A program made the position numbers and the translations under genes. 32,000 bases of DNA from an uncultured Chloroflexia bacterium (lineage in GTDB: Bacteria; Chloroflexota; Anaerolineae; Anaerolineales; Anaerolineaceae): NCBI GenBank assembly GCA_963704755.1, contig OY969938.1:1500001-1532000 (forward strand), in the 5' to 3' direction. Of the stretch, positions 4,282-30,100 are shown in pieces; position 1 is the stretch's first letter, and each line of letters starts with the position of its first letter. The notes under the pieces are model-generated. The model was not told the DNA's origin. It did no database searches and worked only from the letters and a program-made list of their open reading frames with translations.

Positions 4282-4394
4282 GTAACTACCCAGGCCTATG
4301 TTAAGGAGTTCCCTGAATTTGAGGTGTTTGCAGGGGCGAAGCCCCTGCAAACACCTCAAATTCAGGGTTCTTACCTGACAGGCCAAGCAGTTAC
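4282..4394. repeat. Palindromic ~110-bp element, copy 1 (perfect 27-bp-arm hairpin flanked by conserved end motifs)
   Basis: Left motif GTAACTACCCAGG (4282-4294). Perfect arms CCCTGAATTTGAGGTGTTTGCAGGGGC (4311-4337) and its exact reverse complement (4341-4367), loop GAA. Right motif CCAAGCAGTTAC (4383-4394). Same architecture as 24055-24163 and 28327-28435. Confidence 0.75.
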
Positions 4395-8416: not shown

Positions 8417-9014
8417 CTCCCCCAAAATCCGCATTTGTTGCCAGGCTTTGCCCGTAACTCACCATCCCCGTTGGCCGGCGCTTCGCCCTCATCCTTCTCC
8501 CAGAAGCGGGAGAAGGGTTGCCTTGCTGCCAGAAGGCCGCTTTTAACCAGCGGTTCCCCTAATATTCGCACTTTGGATTTAAAAAAGGGTGGGTGCAGGG
8601 CTCATACGCAATACCGGTGGATCACCGGGCGGAAAAACATGCCAGGCCTTGCCCGTAACCCACCATCCCCGTTGGCCGGCGCTTCGCCCTCATCCTCCGG
8701 CCCCTTCTCCCTGAAGCGGGAGAAGGGGTGCCTTGCTGCCAGAAGGCCGTTTTTAACCAGCGGTTCCCCTAATATTCGCACTTTGGATTTGAAAAAATGT
8801 AGGGTGGGTGCAGGGCTCATACGCAATACCGGTGAATCACCGGGCGGTAAAACATGCCAGGCCTTGCCCGTAACCCACCATCCCCGTTGGCCGGCGCTTC
8901 GCCCTCATCCTCCGGCACCTTCTCCCTGAAGCGGGAGAAGGGGTGCCTTGCTGCCAGAAGGCCACTTTTAACCGGCGGTTCCCCTGAAATCCGCACTTTA
9001 GATTTTGGGGGAGG
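8417..9014. repeat. Tandem array of three ~200-215-bp units, non-coding
   Basis: Units start at GCCAGGC at 8440, 8641 and 8856 (periods 201 and 215). Units 2 and 3 differ by only a handful of substitutions over ~150 nt. Each unit has TTGCCCGTAAC[CT]CACCAT, GGCGCTTCGCC and an 11-bp hairpin CCCCTTCTCCC-tgaagc-GGGAGAAGGGG. Units 1 and 2 additionally end in a (GTA)GGGTGGGTGCAGGGCTCAT module; the truncated third unit lacks it. The array is bracketed by CCTCCCCCAAAATC (8417-8430) and its reverse complement GATTTTGGGGGAGG (9001-9014). Confidence 0.85.
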
Positions 9015-16266: not shown

Positions 16267-17085
16267 TCAAATTTCGGGCGTCCAAAATTGCAGGTTGGCA
16301 CGCCCAATCCGCACGGCAAACTGGCGGCCGCGCTCGAAGGCGGAAAAGTCAACCGTGGGCAGCAACGAAAGCTCGCGGGCCGTGGTTGGGTCTTCGATAT
16401 AACCGGTCAGGCGCGACCGAAACAGGCTGATCCACTGGGGGTGTTGGCGGGCCGTTTGTACATCGCAGGCCACCACCGGCCAGACCTGGTAAAAGGGTCC
16501 TTCTTGCAGCAGCCATTCGAAATTCAGGCGCACATCGAAGTCCATATATGGCAGGGTATCCATGCCATCCAGGATGACCAGGTGGGCGCCACCGCTCATC
16601 CGCCCGTGCTGGCGGCTTTCGATCAAGTCGCAGGCCGCAAGGATCGCATCGGCCGCGTCGCGCTCGTAATTGGAGGTGATCACCTTGAAGTAGTCGCCGT
16701 AACGGTTTTCCTCGAGCGACCACTGCCCGGGCTTGGCGCTGATCACGCTGAATTGGACTTCATACGGTCGGTTGGTCCGCAGTAAAGAATGCACCATCGT
16801 TTTAATCAGGCCGGTCTTGCCGGCATAACGCTCGCCCACGATCAGCAAAGACCCCGGGCGGGGATCGTTCAGATCGAACAAAACCGGGGTATGCTCACTG
16901 CTCTCGCCTAAAATCGCGGTCTGCAGCGGTAAAGCCGGCATTTGCCGGATCAGGTCATTCAGGCTGGCCGGCTTTGATCCGGGCGTCTGCTGCCCGCCGC
17001 GGAGTGGAGTGCCAACCCGGGTGTTCCAGGCCGGAAACGCATGCGCGTCCATTTTTGTATTTACAATCGGTAGAGCTACCATCAC
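16267..17085 (-). CDS. Stand-alone FtsK/SpoIIIE-like P-loop ATPase domain protein
   Basis: 272-aa ORF. Walker A LLIVGERYAGKTGL, Walker B-like HLVILDGMDTL. The overall layout resembles a single FtsK/EssC-type ATPase domain. Start is GTG at 17085 or ATG at 17082. Confidence 0.75.
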   Translation of the reverse strand: MMVALPIVNTKMDAHAFPAWNTRVGTPLRGGQQTPGSKPASLNDLIRQMPALPLQTAILGESSEHTPVLFDLNDPRPGSLLIVGERYAGKTGLIKTMVHSLLRTNRPYEVQFSVISAKPGQWSLEENRYGDYFKVITSNYERDAADAILAACDLIESRQHGRMSGGAHLVILDGMDTLPYMDFDVRLNFEWLLQEGPFYQVWPVVACDVQTARQHPQWISLFRSRLTGYIEDPTTARELSLLPTVDFSAFERGRQFAVRIGRANLQFWTPEI

Positions 17086-17129
17086 GATGAACCTTTCGTA
17101 TCGAAAACGATTTGCATCGGTAAATAGGT

Positions 17130-17159
17130 ATTATGTTCTAAAACAGTATAGAACATAAT
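17130..17159. promoter_or_regulatory. Candidate operator: 11-bp perfect inverted repeat overlapping the -10 element
   Basis: ATTATGTTCTA (17130-17140), 8-nt spacer, TAGAACATAAT (17149-17159). It overlaps the spacer, the -10 and the predicted transcription start of the promoter above. Confidence 0.5.
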
Positions 17160-17173
17160 TACTAGAGAGTCAA
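17145..17173 (-). promoter_or_regulatory. Sigma-70-type promoter for the FtsK-like gene
   Basis: Minus strand reads TTGACT (17173-17168), a 17-nt spacer, then TATACT (17150-17145), about 60 nt upstream of the start codon. Confidence 0.6.
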
Positions 17174-17220
17174 GTACTTAATGTAAGAGTGTTGAAAAAC
17201 ACCTTCATATAAAAATTTTT

Positions 17221-17267
17221 GGGATAAATGTGGCGGGGCGGCTTCGCCGCCCCGCCACATTTATCCC
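17221..17267. terminator. Perfect 22-bp-arm hairpin, possible bidirectional terminator or insulator
   Basis: GGGATAAATGTGGCGGGGCGGC-ttc-GCCGCCCCGCCACATTTATCCC. GC-rich top, with ATAAAT/ATTTAT at the base. It lies between the IS and the FtsK-like promoter. Confidence 0.4.
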
Positions 17268-17545
17268 AATTCGGATGATGAAAAGCGACTTTTTCATCAC
17301 CCTCTAATGTTCGTTGTGGGGAAACCCAAGATACCGTTTTGGCTTTCTCGTATTCACTTTACAAAAATCAGGATTTTTGCCATCGCGAGCCCTGGTCGCA
17401 ATGACAACCCTTCCTTGAGAAAGCCATGTAGACACAGTCAGGGCGATTGCAACCGGCCTGCTTTTCGAGGGCAGTTCCCCAAAGAATGGGTTTTTGGGAC
17501 TAAATTGGGATGATGCGATTGCCCTGTAGACACAGTTTCCCTCCA

Positions 17546-18839
17546 CGTGGTGCCTCAAAATAAAATGTTACTTTGGGATAATCGTTGCCTCAAATAGAAA
17601 TGTTACCGGAGAATTCTTAACAATTGATTGACCTTTTTATTGATACTGGCCTGTAAGGACACAGGGTTCAGATGAACATATTGGGCAGTAAGACTGGCCT
17701 TGACTTTCAGGGGAAGAGAGTCCTGGGCTAAGACCCGGCGATAGGGGGTCTTGGCCAGATCATACTTACGGATCGTCTTGCCGTCAACGGTTTCTTTAGC
17801 AATCAGTTTGAGAACTGGCTGGAAAAAATTGATGTAAAGACGCAAATCGGAGTAAATGGATTTGAGCAAGGCAAGTTCTTGTGGGGTTTCGAAGCGGTCA
17901 TAGCCAATGGTATGTCGAACAACCGACCAATTCTTCTGTTCCACATGAGCCTGATCATTCTTGTGGTAAGGCCGCGAACGCGTAAAGGTAATGAGTTCGC
18001 TCTGGCAGTATCGCAAAAGTGTATCGTTGATGAATTCACTGCCATTGTCTGAATCCAATCCCAAAAGAGGAAAAGGCAGGTTATGGCGCAATTCCTCAAT
18101 GGCTTGAGAGACAGCTGTCTGGGTTTTGTTGGCCAGGCCCAGGCACTCGGTCCAGCCGGTGGCTAAATCGGTTGCAGTGAGGGTATTGAGGTAGGTACCC
18201 TCGGTGGTTGTACCACAATGGGCCACCAGGTCGATTTCCAGAAAGCCTGGCTTCTCGTCCTCCCAAGGGGTAAAGGTGCGGATGGGAATGGCTTGTTTGA
18301 GCAAACTGCCCGGTTTGGTAGTCCCAAGCCCACGTGGGGTGGGGGCGAGGCGTGCCTTTTTCAAACAGCGATCTATGGTGGCCCGGCTCAAGCTCAACAA
18401 AAGCGCTTTGGTTTCCTCGCTCAACTCTATTTCCTGCCAGCGCTCTAAAACATCCACCATTTCAGGAATAAAAGGCTGTAGTCGTTTTGAGCAGATGCAC
18501 CCACTAACTTCCCAAATCTTTTCCAGAGCCACGACGACTTCCCCGTTGTATTTCTTCCGTCGCCCGGCTTTCTTCAACCCCTTTGGCTTGGAACCATGCT
18601 TCAACAGCCGAATAGCGTATTTACGATGATATCCGCTTGTGGCGATAAATTCATCCAGAATCTGTTTCTTCTCGGCTTTCCTGGCTTTCAAATAGCGCGG
18701 ACGAATGCTTTCTAGCATCTCCCGCCGACTGCGTTGACTCATCATGAGCTCCCTCTGCGGTGCTTTATTCCGCGTTAGGGTAACATTTATTTTGAGCCAA
18801 CGTTATTTCGCAAAGTAAGATTAATTGTGAGGCAATTCG
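17546..18839 (-). mobile_element. Insertion sequence, 1294 bp, single rve/DDE transposase (ISNCY/IS481-like; family uncertain)
   Basis: ~60-bp imperfect terminal inverted repeats: CGTGGTGCCTCAAAATAAAATGTTACTTTGGGATAATCGTTGCCTCAAATAGAAATGTTACC versus the reverse complement of 18779-18839. 5-bp direct repeat CTCCA at 17541-17545 and 18840-18844. Visibly lower GC than the flanks. Confidence 0.85.
17603..18745 (-). CDS. DDE (rve/integrase-core) transposase
   Basis: 380-aa ORF. N-terminal HTH-like region (ILDEFIATSGYHRKYAIRLL). Catalytic candidates in FLEIDLVAH, LDSDNGSEFIN and HVEQKNWSVVR. AGGGAG lies 4 nt upstream of the ATG. Confidence 0.9.
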   Translation of the reverse strand: MMSQRSRREMLESIRPRYLKARKAEKKQILDEFIATSGYHRKYAIRLLKHGSKPKGLKKAGRRKKYNGEVVVALEKIWEVSGCICSKRLQPFIPEMVDVLERWQEIELSEETKALLLSLSRATIDRCLKKARLAPTPRGLGTTKPGSLLKQAIPIRTFTPWEDEKPGFLEIDLVAHCGTTTEGTYLNTLTATDLATGWTECLGLANKTQTAVSQAIEELRHNLPFPLLGLDSDNGSEFINDTLLRYCQSELITFTRSRPYHKNDQAHVEQKNWSVVRHTIGYDRFETPQELALLKSIYSDLRLYINFFQPVLKLIAKETVDGKTIRKYDLAKTPYRRVLAQDSLPLKVKASLTAQYVHLNPVSLQASINKKVNQLLRILR

Positions 18840-22271: not shown

Positions 22272-22318
22272 ATAATCCTTCTTTCCTACCCTTAAGCTCT
22301 TTCCTTATCGGTAGCGCT

Positions 22319-22493
22319 GTAGGGTAGGTGAAGGGCTCATTAACACTACTGGTGACTTACACACCGGCAAGACCTACGAAACCTTGCCCGTAACTCACCA
22401 TTATGTACGGATGGTGGGTTACGGGCAATTCCTGGGTTGAGGTAGTTGCTCTTTGTTCGCAAGTGTTATGAATGAGCCCTGCACCCACCCTAC
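22319..22493. repeat. 175-bp REP-like composite palindromic element
   Basis: Outer arms GTAGGGTAGGTGAAGGGCTCAT (22319-22340) and ATGAGCCCTGCACCCACCCTAC (22472-22493). Central hairpin TTGCCCGTAACTCACCAT (22384-22401), 9-nt loop, ATGGTGGGTTACGGGCAA (22411-22428), with one G-T position. Both modules recur in the 8417-9014 array. Confidence 0.7.
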
Positions 22494-22502
22494 GGCTAAT
22501 TG

Positions 22503-23924
22503 CTATTGGCTTCTCGCCTTTCCCATCCCCAGCACGATGGGGATCGAGAGCAGGAAGAGCGCGCCGTAGATGCCCATGATCAGGGCATAGCCGAACTGGT
22601 CGGCGATGGGGCCGGCGATGTAGGCCCCCACAGCGCCGGCGCCCGCCCCGGCCAGGTTGGCCAGGCTGAGAAAGCGCCCGATCTGCTCGTGGGGGATGAT
22701 TTCGCTCCCCAGGGACCAATCCGCCGGGTAGAACAGGCCGGTGCCGGCGCCGATGAAGCCCCCGGCCAGGTACACCGCCGCCAGGCTTTTGGATACCAGC
22801 AAAACCATCACCCCGGTCGCAGCCAGCAGGCCGGCGAATGCGATCAGTGGCCTTTTGCCCAGCTTGCCGGCCAACCAGTTGCCCGGCAGGGCGGTCAGCA
22901 AGATGAGGATGCCCACAATCATGGCCATGATCGCAGCCGGGCCGGCGGCTTTCATCCCGGCGTAATCGGCGAACCGCTCCTGCAAAAAGAAGACCAGGAA
23001 AGTCGCCACGTTGGTCGAGCCGATCAGGAAAGCCAGGCGGTTGGCCACCCACCACTTGAAGGCGGGTGGGTAGTGAAATTTGCGGTGGATGCCGATCCGT
23101 AATGTGGCGCTGACCCCCAGCGCCGTGGCGGCAGCCATGGCCAGCAGACCGACGATGGCTGTCACGATCATCTCGGTATGGTCGGGCAAGCCCATTTCGA
23201 TCCGCAGGAACCGGCGCACCAATCCGCCCACGACCAGGATCACCAGCGCGAAACCGCCCGCCATAGTGGCCAGGCGTACAAACGGCTGCCAGTCTGGCCG
23301 GGTGGCCGGACCCTCCAGTCGTTTTTCGCGAATGGTCATGGCAAAAATCATGCAGGCAGCGATCACCAGCATGAGCAGGATCAGCCCACCCCACAAGTTG
23401 CCCCGGCTGAGGAGCTGGCCGATCACAAAGGCGACGAAAATCAAGGGCAGGGGCAGCTCCAGGAGAGCCTTGACCCGGGCATACAATCCCTGTTTTTCAG
23501 CCGGCACCAGGTCGGGCAGCAGGCGCTGGTAAGCGGCGTGGACCGTGTTGGAAGAGACCATCGAGAGGAGATAGAGCCCAAACAGGAAGGGGTAACCGCT
23601 GGAACCGTCCATACCGGCGGTCAGGCCAATCAAGGCGAAGAGGATGATTTCGGCCAGCGAGCCGGCCAGGATAAACGGCCGCCGGCGGCCCCAGGGCAGG
23701 GTGCTGCGGTCGGAGACCATTCCCATAAAGCTCTGGGCTAAAACAGTGACCATTAACGCCCACAGGCGTACCGTACCCAGCGCCGCACCCTGGGCCGATA
23801 CCCCCACGAATTGCTGGACCAGTAACGGTAAGATTAAAGGCGAGATCGTCTGGGAACGGGCGGTCAGGGCGAACCAGTAAATGTTGATCGAAAAAACGTC
23901 GTACCAGCGCACGGGCTGTTTCAT
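22503..23924 (-). CDS. MFS-type transporter
   Basis: Highly hydrophobic multi-TM ORF (track 22503-23942). ATG at 23924 (MKQPVRWYDVFSINIYWF) is preferred because TGAGGT lies 5 nt upstream. The overlapping 345-aa ORF 22357-23394 is an out-of-frame shadow. Confidence 0.85.
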   Translation of the reverse strand: MKQPVRWYDVFSINIYWFALTARSQTISPLILPLLVQQFVGVSAQGAALGTVRLWALMVTVLAQSFMGMVSDRSTLPWGRRRPFILAGSLAEIILFALIGLTAGMDGSSGYPFLFGLYLLSMVSSNTVHAAYQRLLPDLVPAEKQGLYARVKALLELPLPLIFVAFVIGQLLSRGNLWGGLILLMLVIAACMIFAMTIREKRLEGPATRPDWQPFVRLATMAGGFALVILVVGGLVRRFLRIEMGLPDHTEMIVTAIVGLLAMAAATALGVSATLRIGIHRKFHYPPAFKWWVANRLAFLIGSTNVATFLVFFLQERFADYAGMKAAGPAAIMAMIVGILILLTALPGNWLAGKLGKRPLIAFAGLLAATGVMVLLVSKSLAAVYLAGGFIGAGTGLFYPADWSLGSEIIPHEQIGRFLSLANLAGAGAGAVGAYIAGPIADQFGYALIMGIYGALFLLSIPIVLGMGKARSQ

Positions 23925-24054
23925 GCAAACCTCAAGGGGCACCTGATAATGGCTGAATCTTGCTCAAGGCCTATCCAAAAAGCAATTCGAGTGTTTATCT
24001 CTAGTGGCTGGCCGATCAGGATGAGCACCTGGCTGTCTTTTTGATCCATCGTAT

Positions 24055-24163
24055 TAACTACTCAGTCCAGTTCAAAGCGGGAGATTGTTTTGTAGTTTTT
24101 CGCGTGCTTTGCACGCGAAAAACTACAAAACAACCGACCTCTCCTGGATAGTTGAGCAGTTAC
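24055..24163. repeat. Palindromic ~110-bp element, copy 2 (perfect 23-bp-arm hairpin flanked by conserved end motifs)
   Basis: TAACTACTCAG (24055-24065). Perfect arms TTGTTTTGTAGTTTTTCGCGTGC (24085-24107) and reverse complement (24111-24133), loop TTT. GTTGAGCAGTTAC (24151-24163). Inner flanks also pair (TCCAG/CTGGA, GGGAG/CTCTCC). Confidence 0.75.
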
Positions 24164-24317
24164 GAGTTCAGGTTAATTATAGTGGTTTCCGACGGAATTC
24201 CATCCCCGGGACTGGTGATACGTTACAATATTCGTAGTTGCTCGACTTCCATAAACCAGATCCTTTTTCTGCAAGCCTGAGCAGCAATCTTTTTCTCCTC
24301 AGCCAAAGGAGCCGTTC

Positions 24318-24875
24318 ATGGCACAAGATCGAACTCGTAAAATTGTCGTTACCGGCGTTCTGGGGGCAATATCCATTTTGTTGGGCCTCACCCGCATTGG
24401 ATTTATCCCCTGGTTCAGCGGGGCATCCTTGACGATCATGCATGTGCCGGTCATCATTGGGGCGATCCTGGAGGGGCCGGTAGTGGGGGCCGGGATTGGC
24501 CTGATTTTTGGGGTGTTCAGCATGATCCAGGCCGCCGTGGCACCGAACGGGCCGACGGATGTCTGGTTTACCAATCCGCTTTTGGCGGTATTGCCACGCC
24601 TGTTCATCGGGCCGGTGGCCTGGCTGGTCTGGCGGGCACTACAAAAATGGCCGGTGCCGGGATTGATCATTTCCGGGATCGCCGGCAGCCTGACCAACAC
24701 CGTGTTGGTGCTGGGCGTGATCGGCTTGCTGGGCTATTTACCCTGGGCGGCCCTGCCGGCGATTGTGGTTGCCAACGGCCTGCCTGAGATCGCCCTCTCG
24801 GCGATTATCACCTTGATCGTGGTGGCCGCCTGGCGCCAGATCACGATTGGCAGGCGTAAAGGAGCGAATATATAG
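24318..24875 (+). CDS. ECF transporter S (substrate-binding) component, substrate unknown
   Basis: 185-aa, ~6-TM ORF. IPWFSGASLTIMHVPVIIGAILEGPVVGAGIGLIFGVFS and NPLLAVLPRLFIGPVAW are typical of the ECF_trnsprt-type S components. AAGGAG lies 6 nt upstream. Confidence 0.85.
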   Translation: MAQDRTRKIVVTGVLGAISILLGLTRIGFIPWFSGASLTIMHVPVIIGAILEGPVVGAGIGLIFGVFSMIQAAVAPNGPTDVWFTNPLLAVLPRLFIGPVAWLVWRALQKWPVPGLIISGIAGSLTNTVLVLGVIGLLGYLPWAALPAIVVANGLPEIALSAIITLIVVAAWRQITIGRRKGANI

Positions 24876-24966
24876 AGGCGTGGTCGCTCTACGCCGGAAA
24901 CCGAAAAAACAGGGTGTTGCCACCCGCCCGGCACGCCGGCGGGTGAATCGAAGTCCGAATTCTTTT

Positions 24967-25038
24967 GTAGGGGCGAGGCTGCCGGCGGGTAGGCTTGGAG
25001 AGGGAAAGTATATTGGCTCCGGCGGCTTCGCCCGCTAC
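24967..25038. repeat. REP-like imperfect hairpin bounded by GTAGGGG...CCCGCTAC
   Basis: GTAGGGGCGAGGCTGCCGG, ~34 nt, CCGGCGGCTTCGCCCGCTAC. The arms match at 16 of 19 positions by my count. Confidence 0.5.
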
Positions 25039-25267
25039 ACCGGCAAATATGCGAATTGGGGATTACAACAGGTGCTCTTTTTTGCAAACAAATCCTGGAA
25101 GAGCCTTCTGCTATAACTGGATTAGCGCCTGACAGAAAAAGAAGCTTGTTTTTTGGTTGGGCGTCTACCTTCATCCCAACCTTCTCCCTGGGAGGAGGCC
25201 TGGTGAGAGGCGCGGCCGGCAGGTTAAGGCCCTATCATAAATCAGAAAGTATTGATAGATTGGCGTT

Positions 25268-25347
25268 GAAGAGCGGCCTCGGTCTGGAGACCGGGCCGAT
25301 CCGCTCTTAAAAAACTCTTCTCCGTGACCTCTGTGTCCTCTGTGGTT
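25268..25347 (-). repeat. Composite post-stop repeat, short copy
   Basis: Plus strand: GAAGAGCGGCCTCGGTCTGGAGACCGGGCCGATCCGCTCTT, then AAAAAACTCTTCTCCGTGACCTCTGTGTCCTCTGTGGTT. The hairpin core is the reverse complement of the one at 22233-22263. Confidence 0.55.
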
Positions 25348-25394
25348 TTATTTGTAAAATCGGAGCTATAACGGTGCGTTCCGGGCATGCCAGG

Positions 25395-25455
25395 GTAGGC
25401 TGGTGGTCTGGCGGTCCGCCGGCACTGGGGAGGTCAGCCCTCAAACGCACCCTAC
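25395..25455. repeat. Degenerate GTAGG...CCCTAC REP-like element
   Basis: GTAGGCTGGTGG...GTCAGCCCTCAAACGCACCCTAC resembles the ATGAGCCCTGCACCCACCCTAC module of 22472-22493 and of the array. Confidence 0.4.
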
Positions 25456-25524
25456 GATAATGTATTTTTAGAAATCTTCTCTGCGCTCTCAGCGCCTCTG
25501 CGGTGAATTTTCCTGGCCAGCGTT

Positions 25525-25670
25525 GCAGAGCGGCCTCGGCCAAGGGTAGCGAGGGACTGGGCCAATCTGCCACAGGCTTTCGTCTTTTCGACCAGCGAAT
25601 TTTCTTATTTTCTTTTCTTTCTCCGTGTGCTCTGTGCCTCCGTGGTTATCTTTCTTTTCCTCTGCGGTGA
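25525..25670 (-). repeat. Composite post-stop repeat, copy downstream of ecfT
   Basis: Plus strand: GCAGAGCGGCCTCGGCCAAGGGTAGCGAGGGACTGGGCCAATCTGC, then a pyrimidine tract ending CTCCGTGTGCTCTGTGCCTCCGTGGTT. On the minus strand it begins within 30 nt of the ecfT stop. Confidence 0.6.
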
Positions 25671-25677
25671 TTAACTC

Positions 25678-28252: not shown

Positions 28253-28326
28253 TGGTCAAGCAATTTTAACATAGCCGGGTAGTGAAATCTGTCCACAATT
28301 TCGCATATAATACTATTGTCCAAATG

Positions 28327-28435
28327 TCACTACTCAGCTACCCTGGAGGAACTGGGTGTTTTTATTATTTTTGTGTGCTTCGCACACAAAAATAATAAAA
28401 ACACCCATATCTTCTGAACCCGGTTGAGCAGTTGC
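28327..28435. repeat. Palindromic ~110-bp element, copy 3 (perfect 25-bp-arm hairpin flanked by conserved end motifs)
   Basis: TCACTACTCAG (28327-28337). Perfect arms GGGTGTTTTTATTATTTTTGTGTGC (28354-28378) and reverse complement (28382-28406), loop TTC. GTTGAGCAGTTGC (28423-28435). Confidence 0.8.
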
Positions 28436-28469: not shown

Positions 28470-29954
28470 GTGATCAACGAAACTGATACCAATCCAACAT
28501 CGACCGATACAGGACTGCACCGCAATCGCTGGCATCATTTCAGACAGCAATTCAAACCCTGGACTTCAGGGGCGTCTGCGCTGCAAAGGATGGCCCTGGT
28601 CAGCGCCGTGCTGGCTTTGCTGATCCTGCTGGTGATCGCCCTGGCCCAAATGGTATTGGCCTTCAACCCTTACCAGGGCGTATACGGACAGGTTGAACAG
28701 ATGGTGGATAACCAGCCCGACCTGGAATCGCACCTGGATTACAACGGCCTGGCTTCTGAAAACCTGGATCCCAGCCTGGATGTCCCGACAGCCCAGGCTT
28801 TAGCCGAATGGTACGCCGGCTCGACCGAATTGAAAATCTCCAGTGTAGCCGCCGAATACGGCGAGCAGAGTGCGGAAGTCCGCAACGCGATCCGCTCGAT
28901 GGGCGACCTGGCTTATGCTATCCGGCGGGTGAATGATGCCCTGCAAACGGTCACCAATGACAACCGCATTTCGCAGGAAATCAGCCAGGTGCGGCTGTAC
29001 CCGGACCGGGTCAACCCGGACCTGCTGATTTCGATTTACAATGATAGCCTGGCCGAAGTGGAATTGATCAACGAGCTGCGCGGCCAGTTGCAAGACCTGG
29101 CTACCCAGGCACGCCAGATTAGCGGGAACGCCCAGGTAAACGCGACGATCGCCATGCTCCAGGCCGATCCGCAGGACGCCTCCACGCCCGTACCGATTGC
29201 ATTGATGGTCAAAGGATATACCTCCTGGCAAAATATTCCCGACCGCTGCCAATCCTTGGAGATACAGTTCGCCGATACCGTCGCGACGCTCAACCAGATT
29301 TACCTGACCATCGACGTGGCCTGGCGTTCGGATCGGAATTGGGGTTACTCATTTTGGGAACCGGCAGCGAGCTGGGTCAACCGCAATATGGCCTGGTTGA
29401 CGGTGCTGGTGATGGCCCTGATCGCCTTTATGCTGGTAGGATTTTTTCGGAAACGAACTGCCTCAGTCAGCGTTCCACCCAAGGAACCCGGGTTCAATTT
29501 CCAGCGCTGGAGCCAGACCCACATTACCCGCCTGGTGGAAACCCAACCACGTGAGAAAGACGGCAGCCCGGATTTTTGGCGAGAGGCCAATTCATTGGTG
29601 CGCCACCTGATCGATGTGCCCGCTCCGGCGGATGCGTCCGCCAGGCGTTCGGCCCCGGCGGTAGCCCGCCTGGTGATTATCCAGCCGAACGGCCAAAAAG
29701 AAGAAAGACCCTTGCCCGATGAGGGGATTTACCGCATTGGCAGCGACCCGAGTTTCCAGGTGCCGATCAATTACCAGCGGGCCGCTTATGTGGAGCTTTG
29801 GATCCGGAAGGCCCGCTCGGGTTATTTTCTGGAGGTCATGTTCAGCGACGACCCGGTGATGGTCAACAACAAGCCGATCCGCGCCGCCCGGGCGTTGAAA
29901 CATGGCGACTTGATCGAGATGAAAGAAATTACCATCATCTATCTGGAGCAATAA
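28470..29954 (+). CDS. Membrane protein with C-terminal FHA domain
   Basis: 494-aa ORF. Hydrophobic segments MALVSAVLALLILLVIALAQMVLAF and MAWLTVLVMALIAFMLVGFF. C-terminal FHA-like YRIGSDPSFQVPIN...VMVNNKPI...LKHGDLIEM. Start (GTG 28470) is uncertain; no clear SD. Confidence 0.8.
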   Translation: MINETDTNPTSTDTGLHRNRWHHFRQQFKPWTSGASALQRMALVSAVLALLILLVIALAQMVLAFNPYQGVYGQVEQMVDNQPDLESHLDYNGLASENLDPSLDVPTAQALAEWYAGSTELKISSVAAEYGEQSAEVRNAIRSMGDLAYAIRRVNDALQTVTNDNRISQEISQVRLYPDRVNPDLLISIYNDSLAEVELINELRGQLQDLATQARQISGNAQVNATIAMLQADPQDASTPVPIALMVKGYTSWQNIPDRCQSLEIQFADTVATLNQIYLTIDVAWRSDRNWGYSFWEPAASWVNRNMAWLTVLVMALIAFMLVGFFRKRTASVSVPPKEPGFNFQRWSQTHITRLVETQPREKDGSPDFWREANSLVRHLIDVPAPADASARRSAPAVARLVIIQPNGQKEERPLPDEGIYRIGSDPSFQVPINYQRAAYVELWIRKARSGYFLEVMFSDDPVMVNNKPIRAARALKHGDLIEMKEITIIYLEQ

Positions 29955-29955
29955 G

Positions 29956-30014
29956 GAACAAAAGATATGGAGAGGGGTGCGGTTTCACCGCACCCCTCTC
30001 CATATCTTTTGTTC
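29956..30014 (+). terminator. Intrinsic terminator, perfect 28-bp-arm hairpin
   Basis: GAACAAAAGATATGGAGAGGGGTGCGGT-ttc-ACCGCACCCCTCTCCATATCTTTTGTTC, followed by TTT. It starts 2 nt after the FHA gene stop. A-tract and T-tract at the base suggest bidirectional use. Confidence 0.7.
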
Positions 30015-30100
30015 TTTAGCCCGCTTGTACAAGAATTTGTGCTTTCCGGTTTGGGTTGTTTACCCGTTAAATGTTAAGATCACTTACCCAGGAGATGCGA

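Follow-up and report, generated by a model that had tools for sequence, protein, structure and literature searches.

The DNA analysed here is a 32-kb stretch (the window, meaning the whole of that stretch). Within it, a 110-bp palindromic element, E2, lies between two divergent genes identified with Pfam, one for an MFS transporter and one for the S-component of an ECF transporter (ECF-S) (Table 1). The MFS ATG (23924) is 131 bp from E2 and the ECF-S ATG (24318) is 155 bp from it, the distances given in a preliminary description of this DNA. The closest relatives of the MFS protein, at ~62% amino acid identity, are from Chloroflexota and are Bellilinea/Anaerolinea-like. E2 is non-coding: nearly all of its 110 bp is self-complementary, and the ORF list has no ORF of at least 80 amino acids inside it. 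The only other contig that we found with an identical ECF-S gene (L001, Logan ERR11571143) carries an identical E2. This contig and the window differ by one A/G substitution in 2827 bp (L001 position 1494, window position 23955).

Table 1. Features of the window and full-length elements used for comparison
Feature	Coordinates	Strand	Notes
MFS transporter gene, left of E2	22503-23924	-	Pfam
ECF transporter S-component gene, right of E2	24318-24875	+	Pfam
E1, candidate MITE copy, 113 bp	4282-4394	+	GTAACTACCCAG ... CCAAGCAGTTAC; 27-bp perfect core, loop GAA
E2, candidate MITE copy, 110 bp	24054-24163	+	ACTAC end left, GCAGTT end right
E2 left terminal inverted repeat	24054-24065	+	TTAACTACTCAG; 11/12 vs GTAACTACTCAG; first G changed to T
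E2 core palindrome	24085-24133		perfect 23-bp arms, loop TTT
E2 right terminal inverted repeat	24152-24163	-	minus strand reads GTAACTGCTCAA; 11/12 vs GTAACTGCTCAG
E3, candidate MITE copy, 110 bp	28326-28435	+	GTCACTACTCAG ... GTTGAGCAGTTGC; perfect core ~26 bp, loop TTC
B. thuringiensis full-length element, 1628 bp			ends GTAACTACTCAGCTTC/…CTTA; no duplication detected
Leptolyngbya full-length element			end GTAACTACTCAGG; duplication AGAGTATC
D. radiodurans full-length element			end GTAACTGCTCAGCA; duplication TACATTTG
C. estertheticum full-length element			ends GTTACTGCTCAG / GTTACTACTCAC; duplication CAAAATT(T/A)
pHTA426 element			ends GTATCTATTCAG / GTAACTATTCAG; duplication GACGAGTT

Structure of E2

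The center of E2 is a perfect palindrome. It can be read directly from the sequence that the 23-bp arms at 24085-24107 (TTGTTTTGTAGTTTTTCGCGTGC) and 24111-24133 are fully complementary around the loop TTT. By our estimate, perfect 23-bp arms around a loop fixed at 3 nt are expected ~5e-10 times in 32 kb (~32000 x 4^-23). Within 24040-24170, the left part reads ...cgtaT TAACTACTCAG TCCAG ttcaaagc GGGAGA TTGTTTTGTAGTTTTTCGCGTGC ttt, and the part after the loop reads GCACGCGAAAAACTACAAAACAA ccgacc TCTCC TGGA ta GTTGAGCAGTTAC gag...

Pairing continues outside the core. In the minimum-energy fold, TCCAG (24066-24070) is paired with CTGGA (24144-24148), and the two end motifs of E2 pair with each other. 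Pairing of GGGAG with CTCTCC, which had also been proposed, was partial. The RNA fold had an energy of -54.7 kcal/mol (z = -8.3), and 0 of 200 shuffled sequences folded as well. The DNA fold had an energy of -35.2 kcal/mol (z = -9.4), and no shuffle was as stable. Both folds are far better than those of shuffles, and they predict that E2 should be capable of folding or extrusion, as originally suggested. The right limit of the element, 24163, stands as first drawn. The left limit is 24054 (G in the consensus, T here), one base before the 24055 first given.

E2 is one of three copies in the window

We found three copies with one architecture, all in the same orientation, in the 32-kb window (E1, E2 and E3; Table 1). 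The preliminary description had related 24055-24163 to 28327-28435. These two are indeed related, and a further copy exists at 4282-4394. In the flank alignment of 24055-24163 with 28327-28435, the match extends through both ends and breaks off precisely where the terminal repeats do. Based on the folds and this alignment, we place the two in a single family of palindromic elements whose ends are conserved. E1 lies between the E2 and E3 genes of a 2-oxoacid dehydrogenase. Copy E3 lies between an ecfA-like ABC gene (start 28252, minus strand) and a gene for a 494-aa protein (start 28470).

The copies share their layout and little else. Each consists of a terminal repeat, a linker of ~15-19 nt, a perfect palindromic core, a second linker, and a second terminal repeat. 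The only sequence common to all three is the 12-bp terminal inverted repeat GTAACT(A/G)CTCAG. When the copies are aligned, the left end reads G-T-N-A-C-T-A-C-Y-C-A-G and the right end A-G-C-A-G-T-T-R-C, and similarity outside the ends is zero. The interiors are mutually different and each is self-complementary. The terminal repeats of the three copies are ~90% consensus, and the cores are perfect over 23-27 bp.

None of the three copies is flanked by a target-site duplication; 4, 1, and 2 of 8 bases match at E1, E2, and E3, respectively. We searched around them for a shifted or decayed duplication and found none. By eye, neither swapping flanks between copies nor assuming a 3-nt insertion in the left end of E2 gave a match.

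E2 and E3 are the two most similar copies, and they precede the two transcription units of a single ECF transporter. This placement may be a coincidence. We rejected the idea that E2 and E3 bound a composite transposon around the ECF cluster, because they share no duplication and because relatives without the MITEs keep the same gene order.

Other repeats occur in the window. Long hairpins, perfect or nearly so and lacking terminal repeats, are found at 17219-17269 (24 bp), 29952-30018 (32 bp, 97%), and 2728-2766 (16 bp), all at gene 3' ends; the stem of the one at 29952 begins at the stop codon of the gene at 28470-29954. The first two have a TTC loop and G-rich/C-rich tips like those of the MITE cores. 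These three hairpins could be terminators or stripped MITE cores. The hairpin at 17219 sits between genes for an rve-domain integrase (380 aa, weak IS481-like match) and, ~500 bp away, a P-loop/FtsK-like protein (272 aa). This gene pair (16267-18745, minus strand) may be another mobile element. A 215-bp tandem repeat (8439-9005; 2.7 copies, 91% matches) has a unit containing the palindrome CCCTTCTCCCTGAAGCGGGAGAAGGG and the motif TTGCCCGTAACCCACCAT. The same motif is found again in a ~180-bp imperfect palindromic element (22316-22496) just downstream of the MFS stop. These two regions look like a second, unrelated repeat family.

The ends of E2 match those of ISBst12-group elements

A full-text literature search with the end sequence led to ISDge4 of Deinococcus geothermalis. 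This element belongs to the ISBst12 group of the IS66 family, has ends GTGACTACTCAGCA / GTAACTGCTCAGCA, is flanked by an 8-bp direct repeat, and encodes a single transposase of 449 aa (PMC12898284). As a cross-check, we searched plasmids by tblastn with the IS66-like transposase of pHTA426 and retrieved six matches. The retrieved full-length, single-ORF elements have the same ends as the MITEs, and most have 8-bp duplications (Table 1). Using ISDge4 and three full-length elements (L121, L124, and L125) as reference ends, we found that the terminal repeats of E2 match the ends of the autonomous elements (GTAACT(A/G)CTCAG) at 11 of 12 positions at each end. The annotated transposases of pHTA426, B. 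thuringiensis, C. estertheticum, and Streptomyces contain the domains DDE_Tnp_IS66 (4/4), DUF6444 (4/4), and zf-IS66 (2/4).

These results show that the two 12-bp ends of E2 are the terminal inverted repeats that DDE transposases of the ISBst12 group (IS66 family, single ORF) recognize. Because their ends equal those of full-length IS66-family elements, we assign E1, E2, and E3 to MITEs of the ISBst12 group. The naming of these elements is unsettled: one relative, ISGka4, is 'IS66-like' according to NCBI and is placed in the ISLre2 family elsewhere (PMC8024623).

We searched for an autonomous IS66-family element by tblastn with four IS66-family transposases and found none in the window or in the fetched Anaerolineae loci. 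The only matches were in two metagenome contigs, L168 and L141. Both contigs (L168 at 1212-2768) contain full-length IS66-family elements in which a GTAACTACTCAGG end is followed by the transposase gene; these transposases are 31-35% identical to the plasmid ones. All-against-all clustering of the ORFs of 117 MITE-bearing loci yielded only clusters of housekeeping size and no linked transposase.

Related elements in other genomes have 8-bp duplications

We scanned one genome per species with the pattern TAACTACYCAG-N70-100-AGCAGTTAC. At least 117 loci match, with elements of ~100-120 bp that are GTAACTRCTCAG-ended and bounded by GTAACTACTCAG ... CTGAGCAGTTAC. The matches listed come from Chloroflexota (mostly Anaerolineae), Gamma- and Zetaproteobacteria, Desulfobacterota, and Elusimicrobiota. 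Among these matches, the base before TAAC (position -1) is G in 118 of 124 elements.

The family carries a signature of transposition. An 8-bp duplication with 7 or 8 of 8 bases identical is present in the exact frame in 53 of the 124 elements listed, compared to 0 of 124 in a shifted control. For copies elsewhere with a hairpin core, again among the matches listed, the fraction is 27/31. The duplications are AT-rich (30% GC, compared to 54% for the loci) and have the pattern N-W6-N. The 8-bp duplication is found in the family elsewhere and is not found at E2 itself (1/8); we read E2 as a decayed copy whose duplication is gone. The copies are dispersed, with three in 32 kb that have dissimilar flanks and at least 117 loci elsewhere.

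A scan of metagenomes with the end variant specific to E2 and E3 (…GTTGAGCAGTT) gave 39 loci. About half of these are real MITEs, and they belong to other subfamilies. We found no sister copy of the AT-rich core type of E2 and E3, either in the genomes (among the matches listed) or in the 39 metagenome loci.

Some proteobacterial and Desulfobacterota MITEs contain an extra internal end (L016:390-575, L036:1333-1505, L003:126-296, and L009:3232-3382). Their layout is an ACTAC end ... GCAGTTAC, a spacer, and GTAGTTAC; the 8-bp duplication flanks the outermost ends. L016 has a tandem duplication of the internal end and spacer. A 120-bp interior (…GCGTTGAAAAATG.TCATTTACA…TGTAAACTC…) is common to MITEs of Gammaproteobacteria (Thiotrichales, Sedimenticola, and a Methylococcales symbiont) and Zetaproteobacteria (Mariprofundales). 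It was seen in L009, L016, L019, L021, L026, L030, L039, L041, L044, L052, L056, and other loci. That this interior is kept between the two classes suggests horizontal spread or constraint. Many contigs of metagenome-assembled genomes stop within ~50-100 bp of a solitary terminal repeat (L004, L017, L064, L071, L083, L090, L092, L096, and L103), and MITEs of the ISBst12 type therefore seem to break metagenome assemblies.

Relatives have the same gene pair without E2

Four relatives keep the divergent ECF-S/MFS pair beside ecfT and ecfA genes. They have 192-261 bp between ECF-S and MFS, compared to 393 bp in the window. We scanned this intergenic region in three of the four (L126-L131) for the terminal repeat, allowing up to 2 mismatches, and found none. 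All four syntenic relatives are without E2, at a distance too great for exact alignment of the empty site. Because relatives with conserved MFS/ECF-S synteny are without E2, we conclude that E2 is an insertion. At the site of copy E3, the orthologous 499-aa gene and ABC gene of one relative (L171) are 152 bp apart, with no element on reading. The intergenic alignments with relatives are too diverged for promoters or the exact empty site. An apparent conserved TATAAT in these alignments was dropped as it was inconsistent across them.

On the other side of the ECF-S gene, ~800 bp (24876-25677) separate its stop from the convergent stop of CbiQ/EcfT, and the ORF list has only short ORFs there. 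The corresponding distance in relatives is 2-16 bp.

The preliminary description had also pointed to a pair of end-like motifs downstream of E2 and suggested that they could be an empty or decayed site, or part of the ECF-S leader. The motifs are at 24234-24246 (GTAGTTGCTCGAC) and 24277-24289 (CTGAGCAGCAATC), not at 24232-24244 and 24268-24280 as first given. The second (24277-24288) has 3 mismatches to the consensus end and is the only one of the pair found at a limit of 3 mismatches; the first, at 8/12 by our own count, is outside that limit. Sites of this quality occur at chance level (31 in the window with up to 3 mismatches, compared to 21 +/- 4.6 in shuffles), and an empty or decayed site is not supported. 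A part of the ECF-S leader fits better, if weakly: GATTGCTGCT, which is part of the pair, recurs at the corresponding position in one relative lineage (L130/L131) that is free of the MITE.

E2 is probably an old MITE

Based on these results, we suggest that E2 is an old, non-coding, non-autonomous MITE with IS66/ISBst12 ends, an ordinary relic of a mobile element. We put the probability of this reading at about 85%. E2 has the terminal repeats, the size, the copy number, the restriction of similarity to the ends, and the absence from orthologous sites that would be expected of an ISBst12-group MITE. It is a known kind of element, not a new kind. In the literature searched, we found no description of a MITE of the ISBst12 group, nor of any MITE from Chloroflexi.

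A transposase encoded elsewhere would have bound both ends, and E2 would have entered the DNA between the MFS and ECF-S genes, at a cut with an 8-bp stagger, in a Chloroflexota genome of the Anaerolineae type. E2 is probably now an old, immobile fossil, because the first base of its left repeat is mutated, the duplication is absent, and the window has no transposase gene. The long hairpin would be part of the architecture of the MITE and not an adaptation of the MFS/ECF-S locus. At 131 and 155 bp from the two gene starts, the insertion may alter 5' UTRs or promoter spacing; any effect on expression of MFS or ECF-S, through a 5' UTR hairpin or altered spacing, would be a by-product.

If E2 is an old MITE, then it is debris left by mobile DNA of a known IS group, and a candidate "regulatory palindrome" is removed. 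One 12-bp terminal repeat would mark a class of MITEs in at least five phyla, with interiors that are lineage-specific, and annotation pipelines could flag it. MITEs of the ISBst12 type would also explain many contig breaks in metagenome-assembled genomes. Their cores, perfect yet variable in sequence, are a natural data set on the upkeep of palindromes in bacterial genomes.

The palindromic core

Some process appears to keep the two arms of the core complementary. In a subfamily of eight members that includes E1, all changes in the core stem are double and compensated, with no G-U intermediates and a single broken cell. The outer helix of the same eight members has G-U pairs and mismatches. 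Across 36 unique cores, we counted 770 Watson-Crick pairs, 5 G-T pairs, 7 A-C pairs, and 10 other mismatches. With the asymmetric ends as reference, loop triplets are as frequent in one orientation as in the other (GTA/TAC, 4:4; GCA/TGC, 3:3; TTC/GAA, 3:3). Between L086 and L118, the whole tip is inverted. Imperfect intermediates of the core also occur (L142 and L156).

The strict Watson-Crick pairing, the lack of strand bias, and the loop flips point to maintenance of the palindrome at the level of DNA and not to selection acting on a single strand of RNA. Intrastrand template switching at quasipalindromes is an established mechanism with just these properties. From this pattern, the most likely DNA-level process would be quasipalindrome correction, in which the core is kept perfect by template switching at the replication fork. 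Template switching would transfer a change from one arm to its partner, and it could also flip the loop. Selection for a function of the hairpin would likewise keep the arms complementary.

We checked four full-length ISs and found no comparable hairpin, indicating that the core is a module specific to the MITEs. Simple neutral decay does not predict the combination of ~90% terminal repeats, a perfect core, and no duplication. It is a tentative idea, with the odds against it, that the palindromic core of the Anaerolineae-type ISBst12 MITEs is an actively maintained module and not passive filling. If it is, then either there is efficient DNA-level correction of palindromes, measurable on hundreds of natural reporters, or the hairpin has a function. 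Such a function might be to show the ends to the transposase on single-stranded DNA, or to serve the host as a cruciform or 5'-UTR hairpin.

Other explanations for E2

E2 had been treated as a candidate element of the promoters or leaders of the two divergent genes. This interpretation was not supported: its "end motifs" are terminal repeats of the IS66 family, relatives are without E2, and there is no promoter-like site. A scan of 23850-24400 found no sigma-70-like promoter, and it found no terminator that overlaps E2. We found no evidence that MFS or ECF-S needs E2, and a regulatory role for it, though possible, is unlikely.

A related explanation is that E2 began as a MITE and is now kept for a function at this locus. 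It could have been exapted as a stem-loop in the 5' UTR of MFS or ECF-S that is stabilizing or targeted by RNase III, as a cruciform or insulator separating the two promoters, or as the donor of a -35-like hexamer (TTGAGC, right end). E2 keeps a perfect core and ~90% consensus terminal repeats though its duplication is lost, the predicted fold is very stable, and E2 and E3 lie upstream of both transcription units of one ECF transporter cluster. AT-rich, -10-like hexamers are present at E2 and at E3, in each case 12-14 nt beyond one end. Other bacterial MITEs (Correia and ERIC) affect mRNA stability, which we also count in favor of exaptation. However, relatives run the same gene pair without E2, and the promoter scan passed no site, the intergenic alignments being too diverged to place promoters. 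In addition, the cores show neither tolerance of G-U nor strand bias (5 G-T compared to 7 A-C) and their loops occur both ways, which argues against selection on one RNA strand. We consider exaptation unlikely.

It is far less probable that E2 belongs to a family of stand-alone, structured non-coding RNA genes with conserved ends and a variable stem. The strong folds and compensatory changes in the stem would fit such a family. However, the ends are transposon terminal repeats, the elements are flanked by target-site duplications, mismatches show no strand asymmetry, and no promoter or terminator frames the element. There were also no Rfam matches at the gathering score in the window and six sister loci. 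An Rfam scan of 23900-24340 by E-value gave only generic matches of the hairpin or miRNA kind, all of them under the threshold, and showed the ECF-S leader to contain no riboswitch match. The window contains no tRNA or tmRNA gene.

We give slightly less credence still to the notion that E2 is a REP/BIME palindrome spread by a RAYT, or an integron attC site. E2 is an intergenic palindromic repeat, it resembles attC in having a variable palindrome between conserved ends, and GTTGAGC in E2 and E3 fits GTTRRRY. However, the left end, TATTAAC, is unlike RYYYAAC, and E1 is without GTTRRRY. The copies are separated by 4-20 kb and have housekeeping genes around them, unlike sites in cassette arrays. 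The family's 8-bp duplications and 12-bp terminal inverted repeats are foreign to both REPs and attC. No tyrosine recombinase, IntI-type integrase, or RAYT was found with Pfam among the ten window ORFs scanned, which included the neighbors of E1, E2, and E3.

It is equally improbable that E2 is a bidirectional intrinsic terminator: it has a long hairpin with GC-rich tips, and some sister subfamilies have an A6-stem-T6 layout, but E2 lies between divergent gene starts and not at 3' ends, its inner stem has T5 before and A5 after on both strands (a terminator reversed), and the scan placed both of its terminator-like sites (24016-24032 and 23913-23900) outside it. When tested for membership in REP/BIME, attC, intrinsic terminators, and Rfam families, E2 belonged to none of them.

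Comparison with known systems

As an old MITE, E2 is most readily compared with the ISBst12-group ISs (ISBst12, ISDge4, and plasmid elements of Bacillus, Leptolyngbya, and Deinococcus), with which it shares the terminal repeat GT(A/G)ACT(A/G)CTCAG. The A/G asymmetry of the ISDge4 ends is also found in the MITE family, as is the 8-bp target-site duplication. Unlike these ISs, E2 has no transposase gene, is 110 bp and not ~1.6 kb, and has lost its own duplication. Its long, perfect palindromic core sets it apart from the four full-length ISs that we checked.

Classical bacterial MITEs (Correia/CREE of Neisseria, ERIC/IRU, RUP, Nezha, and MITEPsy1) are short intergenic sequences that are non-coding and occur in multiple copies. 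They carry terminal inverted repeats, can potentially form a hairpin over their whole length, and can be co-transcribed with their neighbors. The E2 family would share these traits and would differ in its parent IS and in the length of its duplication (8 bp). The interiors of E2-type MITEs are lineage-specific, and only the terminal repeats are common across phyla.

REP/BIME sequences (GTAG- or CGTC-tagged and RAYT-associated; PMC3733652) are also abundant intergenic palindromes with compensatory evolution of the stem. REPs are 20-40 bp and have neither terminal inverted repeats nor target duplications, whereas E2 is 110 bp with 12-bp repeats and its family has 8-bp duplications. The likeness to integron attC sites is in the short, conserved end motifs around a variable palindromic center; attC acts as a folded single strand. 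E2 and its relatives differ from attC in that the R''/R' core is not present in all copies and in that the family makes 8-bp duplications.
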